Assembly: GCF_003334385.1 (NCBI RefSeq)
Contig: NZ_QOWN01000150.1
Source: Escherichia coli
Lineage (GTDB): Bacteria > Pseudomonadota > Gammaproteobacteria > Enterobacterales > Enterobacteriaceae
Length of the DNA: 695 nt
Direction: 5' to 3' (one strand)
Shown: piece after piece, positions 1-695 of the stretch
Position numbering within the stretch: position 1 is the first letter of the stretch
Layout of the letters: every line of letters begins with the position of its first letter
Notes under the pieces: model-generated
Database searches by the model: none
The model's input: the letters and a program-made list of their open reading frames with translations, nothing else
What the model was told of the DNA's origin: nothing
Position numbers and translations under genes: made by a program

Positions 1-30
1 CGACAGGCCGTATCTGATTTTTGCGTTCAT
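1..30 (-). CDS. 5' end (first 10 codons) of a putative prophage endolysin, GH24 lysozyme, RrrQ/YdfQ-like; gene continues beyond the left window edge
   Basis: Seen in sequence: minus-strand ATG at complement of 28..30 followed by AAC GCA AAA ATC AGA TAC GGC CTG TCG = M-N-A-K-I-R-Y-G-L-S, open to the window edge. Established knowledge, recalled from memory and not searched: the E. coli K-12 Qin prophage lysozyme RrrQ begins MNAKIRYGLSAAVLA.... Caveats: only 30 bp visible, and no Shine-Dalgarno motif within 15 nt upstream on the minus strand. Confidence 0.35.
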   Translation of the reverse strand, partial: MNAKIRYGLS

Positions 31-51
31 GGATATTTATCAGGATTTATC
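31..51 (+). repeat. Tandem direct repeat GGAT(AT)TTATC (31..41 and 43..51) in the divergent intergenic region; a third GGATAT copy lies at 66..71; possible protein-binding or operator-like site
   Basis: Seen in sequence: GGATATTTATC at 31..41 and GGATTTATC at 43..51, spaced about one helical turn apart; GGATAT recurs at 66..71. They lie immediately upstream of the putative lysozyme ATG (read on the minus strand as GATAAAT repeats) and upstream of the plus-strand small ORF. No confident match to a known operator consensus. Confidence 0.25.
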
Positions 52-91
52 GGTTCCGAATCCCTGGATATGTTAAGTCTTCAGCCCGCCA

Positions 92-331
92 GTGGTGGGC
101 ACTGGCGTAAACTCAACAATGCGAGATGGCTGCCTCGCAAAGATAATCAAAGCAATGGATGCACTAAGTAAAAATAACGCTGTGTCAGATTACCTGATCG
201 CCGAAATGGAACATCTAATTAAAGAAATACCAAAGACAGTTGCTCGTGATGATAAAAGATTCCTCAAGGCTGCTGAAGATGCTCTTTCAACAGTGAAGCG
301 CAGCTTAGATGCGCCGCGCGATCAAGAATAG
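92..331 (+). CDS. Hypothetical small protein (79 aa from GTG at 92, or 70 aa from ATG at 119); possible moron-like ORF; could be a chance antisense ORF
   Basis: Seen in sequence: open frame bounded by in-frame TAA at 74..76 upstream and TAG at 329..331. Candidate starts are GTG 92 and ATG 119, neither preceded by a recognisable Shine-Dalgarno motif. The predicted peptide is helical and charged (rich in A/K/L/D/E), with no signal peptide or transmembrane segment. Codons include ATA x2, CTA x2, AGA, CGA. The last 68 bp (264..331) overlap the 3' end of the minus-strand CDS, so one of the two readings in that segment may be non-coding. Hand-counted GC of 121..240 is about 40%, below the window average. 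Confidence 0.3.
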   Translation: MVGTGVNSTMRDGCLAKIIKAMDALSKNNAVSDYLIAEMEHLIKEIPKTVARDDKRFLKAAEDALSTVKRSLDAPRDQE

Positions 332-695
332 TTTCTTTCATTTCATCTGCTGCAAGCACCTCATTTTTTGTTGGGATGCTTTTTTTCAATTCAGCGATAT
401 AGCACTCCAGTTTTTCAATGCGTGATTCAATATCATCGTTTTCTGACCGCAATGCCGTCGGTGGCGTCTTCAGAGAACCAGTAATTATTCCCGGTAGTTT
501 TCCTCTGTAGGTTATCAACACATCCTGCGCCTCTAAAATTATGGGGCGCTTTTCCGGCGACTGCTCATCCCCTTCACATAAAGCGGCAGCAATATCCATG
601 AAAAACTGCTTCGCCTGTTTTTTCGCCTCAGCTTCGTAAAACTCCAGCGTGGCACCTTCAGTACGGTCAAGACTAATCGCCACATATGGCAACAA
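264..695 (-). CDS. Hypothetical protein, 5'-partial (N-terminus lies beyond the right window edge); predicted compact N-terminal region followed by a charged helical, possibly coiled-coil, C-terminus; function unknown
   Basis: Seen in sequence: uninterrupted minus-strand reading frame of 143 sense codons from the window edge (695) to TGA (complement of 264..266). The first codon TTG at 693..695 is probably a window-edge artefact, not the true start. The only internal ATG (complement of 597..599) has no Shine-Dalgarno-like purine run upstream. Amino-acid composition is protein-like, with a heptad-like charged stretch DDIESRIEKLECYIAELKK. Codon usage resembles horizontally acquired enterobacterial genes (ATA x3, CTA x2, AGA). 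No transmembrane-like stretch, so it is not a holin. No family recognised from memory. Confidence 0.7.
   Translation of the reverse strand: MLPYVAISLDRTEGATLEFYEAEAKKQAKQFFMDIAAALCEGDEQSPEKRPIILEAQDVLITYRGKLPGIITGSLKTPPTALRSENDDIESRIEKLECYIAELKKSIPTKNEVLAADEMKETILDRAAHLSCASLLKEHLQQP

Follow-up and report, generated by a model that had tools for sequence, protein, structure and literature searches.

The 695-nt stretch of Escherichia coli DNA analyzed here (contig NZ_QOWN01000150.1, called the window in the following) lies in the lysis cassette of a lambdoid prophage and is 100% identical to a stretch of the E. coli chromosome NZ_AP045172.1. The minus-strand gene order of the cassette is class II holin, YdfR-family gene, lysozyme, and the 3' end of the YdfR-family gene overlaps that of a small plus-strand open reading frame (ORF). 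A convergent overlap of 68 bp covering 22 codons on each strand had been noticed from the sequence alone and agrees with the ORF list, which places it at 264..331 on both strands, with 22 codons and part of the stop codon of each ORF. We conclude, with a probability of about three in four, that the two ORFs represent a conserved convergent gene pair of Enterobacteriaceae temperate phages whose constrained ends meet at about position 305, that the terminator of the plus-strand gene is embedded in the minus-strand ORF, and that the plus-strand ORF in this window is a remnant. The overlap is an ordinary result of the tight packing of such a conserved convergent pair, of which one partner is degraded here.

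In the organization that we propose, the minus-strand gene would be a member of the phage late (lysis) operon and would encode a long form of YdfR in which DUF1327 is followed by a coiled-coil segment ending in ILD-x-A-x-x-L. The plus-strand gene would be a small accessory gene of low GC content, equipped with its own conserved leader, Shine-Dalgarno (SD) sequence and intrinsic terminator. Past the meeting point at about 305 each ORF continues as an unconstrained tail through the constrained segment of the other until it reaches a stop codon, which gives the 68-nt overlap.

Conservation of the convergent pair

Homologues of the plus-strand gene were gathered from protein databases, viral contigs and metagenomes, and those with readable flanks were examined. 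The loci compared with the window are given L-numbers, L001 being the locus identical to it. Each of these homologues had a convergent minus-strand ORF over its 3' end. Such pairs occurred in at least five genomic contexts with overlaps of 20–86 nt, mostly 68 nt (L004, L005, L006, L011, L013, L023, L024, L053 and L063). The 68-nt overlap is found in E. coli lysis cassettes, where several diverged versions of the minus-strand ORF are fused to DUF1327, and in another E. coli context, which precedes a different holin cassette (L006). It is also found with a standalone minus-strand ORF of 57 aa in Citrobacter (L004) and with standalone ORFs of 51–57 aa that follow a 485-aa gene in a context of the Enterobacter type (L023, L024 and L053). 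In a tail-region context (L055) the minus-strand ORF has 54 aa and the overlap is 71 nt. Distant representatives retrieved by an exhaustive HMMER search, which cannot be aligned at the DNA level, have overlaps of 47 nt (L056), 86 nt (L057) and 20 nt (L059 and L061).

In all but the most distant case (L061) the partner ends in the same motif, K-x-P-x-K-x-E-x-L-x-x-D-E-x-K-x-x-I-L-D/S-W-A-A-x-L. For the 144-aa partner in L056, hhalign gave a probability of 91.9%, and BLASTP aligned it over its full length with the 176-aa minus-strand protein of the window (E = 1e-5); the long architecture is therefore old. A Pfam search with the minus-strand partners of L056 and L059 gave no DUF1327 match. The initial idea that the minus-strand tail was a read-through created by insertion of the plus-strand gene was revised, since standalone and distant partners share both the motif and the overlap.

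The length of the overlap in a single sequence is not beyond chance, since random draws of synonymous codons for an unchanged plus-strand protein left the antisense frame open through the 22 codons in a fraction of 0.22–0.36 of the trials. What is beyond chance is the recurrence of the overlap in every lineage examined. The sequence-only reading had offered two possibilities, a spurious call or a true overlap of the 3' ends. The latter is correct for the two families, which overlap wherever the plus-strand gene occurs and for which RefSeq annotates both coding sequences (CDSs) elsewhere; the plus-strand ORF as called from GTG 92 is nevertheless not the native gene of this locus.

The called plus-strand ORF spans 92..331 and encodes 79 aa, with a GTG start and a TAG stop at 329–331. 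The native coding sequence of the phrog_18136 gene is confined to 140..331 (63 codons and the stop codon), and 92..139 is upstream leader that is in frame with it by accident. The intact gene of close relatives is 100 bases longer and encodes 91 aa from an ATG preceded by the SD sequence AAGGAA (L002 3156..3431), within a family size of 85–91 aa. In these relatives two copies of the 9-bp direct repeat CAAAGATAA flank AAGGAACAGATATG and 28 codons. Alignment with L002, L012 and L006 shows a single remaining copy in the window, which forms a deletion junction at 138..146. The 100-bp deletion between the repeats removed the SD sequence, the ATG and the 28 N-terminal codons and left the part homologous to residues 29–91 of the 91-aa protein; the called ORF is thus a 5'-truncated remnant. 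The repeats suggest that the deletion arose by slippage or microhomology.

To see how the two frames share the overlap we used a gap-free alignment of 11 distinct sequences covering 264..331. In this arrangement plus-strand codon position 3 lies opposite minus-strand position 2, position 2 opposite position 3, and position 1 opposite position 1. The sequence-only reading had proposed that conservation in this interval would reveal whether just one frame is under purifying selection. The outcome is split, with 267–304 carrying the plus-strand signature only and 305–328 the minus-strand signature only.

The plus-constrained part (267..304, plus strand) encodes most of helix 3 of the plus-strand protein (...KAAEDALSTVKRS). 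Substitutions in 263–304 were distributed over plus codon positions 1/2/3 as 6/5/16, which does not differ from the plus-only region (Fisher p = 1.0), and an OLGenie-style count over 267–304 gave ratios of non-synonymous to synonymous substitution rates (dN/dS) of 0.35 for the plus frame and 2.09 for the minus frame. The last 13 minus-frame codons, which occupy the same 267–304, are unconstrained with the possible exception of the block GTGAAGCGC at 293–301. This block is invariant, three consecutive plus-strand third positions included, which hints at a short doubly constrained core.

The pattern is reversed in the minus-constrained part (305..328, minus strand), which encodes ILDRAAHL of the minus-strand protein. 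Here the substitutions by plus codon position were 4/10/4, i.e. with an excess at minus-strand position 3, and this distribution differed from that in the plus-only region (Fisher p = 0.0009) and from that in 263–304 (p = 0.013). The corresponding dN/dS values were 1.06 for the plus frame and 0.49 for the minus frame. The last eight plus-strand codons (LDAPRDQE), six of which encode residues predicted to be disordered, are unconstrained. The difference is well illustrated by L013, in which five changes at plus position 2 turn the plus-strand tail SLDAPQDQE into SSGAQLIQE and the minus-strand protein changes only from D to E and from S to N. The boundary between the two parts coincides with the end of predicted plus-strand helix 3 (window 254–310) and with the minus-strand ILD-x-A-x-x-L motif.

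Downstream of the overlap the plus-strand gene is followed by an intrinsic terminator at 354..386 (plus strand). It consists of a 10-bp hairpin, in which 354–363 pair with 372–381 around an 8-nt loop, and a T-run extending to 386. The element begins 22 nt past the plus-strand stop codon and lies inside the minus-strand ORF, at the KKSxPxK motif. A terminator scan detected it in L002, L004 and L053, and a shorter form in L056 and L059. The scan misses it in the window because of a single G-to-A mismatch at 376, a change present only in the window, L001 and L035 among the sequences compared. The resulting C·A mismatch weakens the terminator, as reflected in folding energies of −16.7 kcal/mol (z −3.4) in L002 and −10.0 kcal/mol (z −1.0) in the window, and the same change replaces Thr by Ile in the minus-strand protein (KKSTPTK to KKSIPTK). 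Over nine sequences 95.5% of the cells were paired, compared to 38–67% in slid controls, and three pairs showed compensatory changes. At the corresponding place L055 has an unrelated hairpin followed by a U-run. The earlier statement that no terminator hairpin is evident in or just past the overlap must therefore be withdrawn for the plus strand, where a hairpin and T-run are conserved in relatives with compensatory changes.

Geometry of the two transcripts

The arrangement makes antisense interference geometrically possible, as judged from the sequence: convergent transcripts would have complementary 3' ends, with the terminator at 354–386 lying inside the minus-strand ORF. A plus-strand transcript that stops at this terminator would share complementarity with about 120 nt or more of the mRNA from the late operon (264–386). 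With both genes intact, expression of one partner could hinder that of the other through transcriptional collision or through cleavage or decay of an RNA duplex. In the window any such effect would come from a remnant transcript that is non-coding and has a weakened terminator.

We considered whether the overlap is itself functional, acting as an antisense switch that would make lysogenic expression of the plus-strand gene and late expression of the YdfR-family gene mutually exclusive. The models for such a switch are the 3'-end antisense pair reportedly formed by oop RNA and cII of phage lambda, and the arrangements said to act as excludons. The likeness lies in the convergent arrangement, for oop/cII likewise in a lambdoid phage, in which tens of nucleotides at the 3' ends of the two units are complementary and one unit has its terminator inside the other; for the pair described here this likeness is one of geometry. 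The pair differs from oop/cII in that both partners are protein-coding, each with an SD sequence, an ATG and a coding-type substitution pattern. A functional role agrees with the retention of a 3' overlap in all lineages despite its varying length and with the position of the plus-strand terminator, which is always within the minus-strand ORF. Furthermore, several contexts have a minus-strand terminator about 145 nt upstream of the plus-strand start, so the two units would be antisense to each other over almost their full length, with transcripts overlapping by about 500 nt. The length of the overlap is however not conserved (20–86 nt), and co-inheritance of the two genes follows automatically from their physical overlap. 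Moreover, the minus-strand gene is unchanged in about 100 of the 136 E. coli genomes that hold some part of the plus-strand gene, those in which the latter is deleted or replaced, which makes the plus-strand partner dispensable for it. On balance we consider a functional overlap possible but unlikely.

Small two-gene prophage modules with 3'-overlapping convergent transcripts are also known as type I toxin-antitoxin pairs, such as txpA/ratA and bsrG/SR4 of Bacillus subtilis prophages. A type I toxin-antitoxin system was rejected as an explanation for the present pair. A small hydrophobic peptide was not found (maximal 19-aa Kyte-Doolittle means of 1.37, 1.29 and 0.55), there is no non-coding RNA partner since both genes have SD, ATG and coding-type substitutions, and PADLOC gave no significant match.

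A point that also bears on a functional overlap is the report that the YdfR protein of E. coli K-12 uses its first 72 residues to bind the catalytic (N-terminal) domain of RNase E and co-purifies with RNA (2026 study, PMC13232886). In the literature search this was the single paper connecting K-12 YdfR to RNase E; nothing came up on the function of DUF1327, and no paper linked ydfR to holin. The report on K-12 YdfR allows a more far-reaching proposal, in which the long-form YdfR gene and its three-helix partner would form a self-contained regulatory module: their mRNAs would pair over at least 120 nt, the YdfR protein would take part in the decay of the duplex or of host transcripts, and the choice between lysogenic and lytic expression would be coupled to RNase E. 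We regard this proposal as highly doubtful. If true, the pair would be an RNase E adaptor system that is encoded by phages, coupled to antisense pairing and not described before.

The plus-strand gene and its remnant

The remnant could in principle still be a working gene that produces a short protein from GTG 92 or from the in-frame codons ATG 119 or ATG 155, and gene callers indeed report it in versions of 79, 70 or 58 aa. Its leader is intact, its frame is open and the same in many assemblies, and records of the exact 79-aa product, which is named in E. coli GenBank entries, exist for 331 contigs, indicating also that the deleted allele is widespread. Inspection of the window sequence nevertheless revealed no Shine-Dalgarno sequence at any of the three candidate starts. 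The lost codons include most of the invariant 17-residue block FDRIFTLELQVGxLxPK and the greater part of predicted helix 1. In relatives the full-length gene is annotated by RefSeq, which has nothing at this position in L001, and other independent truncations or replacements of the plus-strand gene exist in the same E. coli lysis-cassette context. A still functional short protein is thus improbable, and we retain the description of the plus-strand ORF as the degraded member of the conserved pair.

In its intact form the gene is well defined as a family. Residues 7–91 of the 91-aa relative match positions 3–87 of the 87-position phrog_18136 profile with E = 4.2e-52. Substitutions in the plus-only part of the CDS were distributed as 24/14/48 over the codon positions, with a ratio of non-synonymous to synonymous polymorphism (pN/pS) of 0.31, and no other frame of this region is open in all lineages. 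The AlphaFold2 model of the protein is a three-helix bundle with a predicted local distance difference test score (pLDDT) of 77.5, in which helix 3 comprises residues 67–85 and the last six residues are disordered (pLDDT 38 for the last residues). Comparison of the model to PDB and BFVD gave nothing below E = 1. In Pfam the protein had chance-level matches only, and no Pfam, NCBIfam or PADLOC match passed E = 0.001; the two weak PADLOC matches had E values of 0.005 and 0.026. A separate observation is P0032, a 70-aa sequence on a 1,093-bp Logan contig in which a lysozyme N-terminus is joined to the last 25 residues of the plus-strand gene product, which implies an inversion or an assembly chimera.

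The plus-strand gene is preceded by a conserved leader (31..137, plus strand) that is recognizable from E. coli to Citrobacter and metagenomic lineages. About 110 nt 5' of the gene are conserved in all contexts (L002 3056–3158, L004 2901–3003, L023 2386–2488). Within it an element is predicted at about 82–132, consisting of CAGCC, an 8-bp hairpin formed by CGCCAGTG and CACTGGCG, and GGCTG. The RNAalifold consensus of the leader has 16 pairs, two of them with compensatory changes, and the hairpin shows compensatory changes in Citrobacter. A search of Rfam at E ≤ 1 returned no family in the window, the leader included. The element could represent either a structured leader at the 5' end or a palindromic operator. 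In non-lambdoid contexts a minus-strand intrinsic terminator adjoins the leader on its upstream side (L023 2341–2358, L053 2494–2511, L059 1369–1388), so that the module has a terminator on either side, the two being of opposite polarity.

The family is rare and occurs largely in some E. coli, Citrobacter, Enterobacter and metagenomic phages; peptide-pattern and DNA-pattern scans of representative genomes of 100,044 species found nothing. The 136 E. coli genomes mentioned above were found among 5,426 complete ones. The full gene is present in 28 of them and the deletion of the window in about 15; E. coli strains G1/2 (NZ_CP060083.1) and M21816 (NZ_CP133923.1) are examples with both genes intact. 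In the rest only the 68-nt tail and the terminator are left, inside a longer minus-strand ORF, and the body of the plus-strand gene is replaced. Such a replacement is also seen in phage PhiR5_1 (L003), which has a 211-aa minus-strand ORF and a different convergent gene overlapping it by 53 nt. The minus-strand gene therefore survives without its partner, its ORF being intact where the plus-strand gene is deleted or replaced. At this site in L003 (3142–3402 and 3350–3985) the small plus-strand gene converging on the extended minus-strand ORF belongs to phrog_2572 and is annotated as DUF1823.

Several of these properties resemble those of morons, the accessory genes reportedly carried by phages, for which lambda bor is said to be an example. 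The plus-strand gene is small, has a GC content of 0.40 as compared to 0.54 for the holin and lysozyme genes, and is located between conserved late genes. It is absent from many related prophages, including K-12 Qin, in which ydfR abuts rrrQ, and most lambdoid prophages. Furthermore, it has its own intrinsic terminator, weakened in the window, and, as is said of bor, points against the direction of late transcription. It differs in that leader scans in four lineages located no consensus σ70 promoter for it, and in that it overlaps the CDS of its neighbor and always travels with the C-terminal segment of that neighbor, which is atypical of a free-standing moron.

The long-form YdfR gene

The minus-strand ORF in the window (264..695, minus strand) comprises the C-terminal 143 codons and the stop codon of a long-form YdfR-family gene. 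Its TGA stop codon is the reverse complement of 264–266, and the ORF passes the edge of the window to reach an ATG at window-equivalent position 794 (L001 5264..5794, 176 aa). The protein matches Pfam DUF1327 (PF07041) with E = 6.9e-40, aa 1–112 aligning to positions 1–92 of the 93-position model, and phrog_2091 with E = 2.5e-79. The part of the DUF1327 domain that falls within the window is 459..695 (minus strand). Members of the YdfR family occupy the interval between holin and endolysin in L001, L002, L003, L063 and the K-12 Qin annotation.

The protein thereby resembles YdfR of K-12 Qin in domain and in its slot between holin and lysozyme. The two are 42% identical over aa 1–74, the region reported to contact the N-terminal domain of RNase E (PMC13232886). 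The differences are that it has 176 aa instead of 103, that about 100 residues past the first 74 are unrelated, including a 64-residue motif-bearing extension, and that it has a convergent overlapping partner, which is lacking in K-12. The extension beyond the Pfam domain (267..458, minus strand) consists of a coiled-coil-like segment, the motif LKKSxPxKxExLxxDExKExILDxAxxL and a variable tail, and the C-terminal stretch of the 176-aa protein reads ...ILDRAAHLSCASLLK. In other phages the extension occurs as a standalone ORF of 51–57 aa with its own SD and ATG. In four lineages these standalone ORFs carry a strong SD (GGGAGG, AAGGAG, AAGGAGG and AAGGAG) together with an ATG.

At the identical locus RefSeq calls only the N-terminal 114 codons (453..794; L001 5453..5794), as a partial 'YdfR family protein' pseudogene 'missing C-terminus'. 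The equivalent gene in strain M21816 is annotated as intact by RefSeq, which calls both overlapping CDSs there, and E. coli entries in GenBank name the exact 176-aa protein. The minus-strand ORF is intact and the pseudogene flag probably wrong; the flag looks like an artefact of mosaic C-termini. The name 'terminase small subunit' given to some members of the 90% cluster of the protein seems to be a misannotation.

Some further forms of the minus-strand ORF were noted. In L050 (1501–2489, E. coli HVH 184) a frame break in the 68-nt region splits an apparent long ORF into ORFs of 162 and 161 aa. The long ORF would comprise DUF1327, the coil and about 160 further residues and may be compared to phrog_1085 (296 positions), and the 162-aa form represents a cluster of 216 sequences. 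ORFs of 63 aa in Salmonella enterica (L051 2001–2192) and Citrobacter freundii (P0058) have the N-terminal half of the small minus-strand ORF (MTLEQRVEILERSVSGLKKS.P.K.E.L.LD) with a different C-terminal half and no plus-strand gene. Their tail ...KITGSLRAPIKL resembles IITGSLKTPPTAL, located further upstream in the minus-strand protein of the window, which suggests module shuffling or an internal repeat.

A few findings weigh against a conserved pair as described here. The selection tests comprise about 11 related sequences and 66 nt. A scan of the conserved leader in four lineages, which covers consensus σ70 sites only, found no such site. NCBIfam had no family for any of the four proteins searched, and PADLOC and structure searches gave only weak, non-significant matches. 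To these are added the RefSeq pseudogene flag on the YdfR-family gene and the 1-nt indels that occur in or beside the terminator in L005 and L012 and break the minus frame. Finally, in the minus-only spacer at 332–353 the substitutions were distributed as 6/4/4, and because there is no clear third-position excess, part of the conservation of this spacer could be due to constraint at the RNA level.

The last three findings, together with the fact that much of the segment conserved in all lineages is antisense to the plus-strand tail, spacer and terminator, would also fit a locus in which only the plus frame is real, the minus-strand extension (267–458) being non-functional read-through of a pseudogene whose conservation derives from the plus-strand tail, 3' untranslated region and terminator. 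This is very improbable in view of the minus-frame signature at 305–328 with the rewritten plus-strand tail in L013, the minus frame being the sole one of six open in all eight lineages over 333–392 (pN/pS 0.52), the open minus-strand ORF in L055 despite its different terminator sequence, the four standalone versions with strong SD and ATG, the distant L056 partner of the same full-length architecture, and the database entries in which the gene is annotated as intact or its exact product is named.

The window also includes the first 10 codons of the prophage lysozyme (R/rrrQ-type; 1..30, minus strand; translation MNAKIRYGLS...), as taken from the RefSeq annotation of the identical locus. Its start codon is the reverse complement of 28–30, and the gene at L001 4497..5030 corresponds to window positions −503..30. 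In the Citrobacter prophage of L004 the module is located beside two copies of the small RNA STnc100 (3527–3728 and 3823–4031; Rfam RF02076), one scoring 81 bits and the other, with 40 bits, falling short of the gathering score; the same locus also has a C4 antisense RNA and a cspA thermoregulator.

For annotation, the findings mean that the plus-strand 'hypothetical protein' calls of 58–79 aa represent a deletion remnant and that both overlapping calls made elsewhere are legitimate. They define a small portable two-gene module, composed of a long-form YdfR gene and a phrog_18136 gene, and provide a clean natural example of convergent genes that share DNA with little true double coding. Since RNase E binding was recently reported for a relative of one partner, the pair is worth considering as a reasonable candidate for antisense control in prophage lysis regions.

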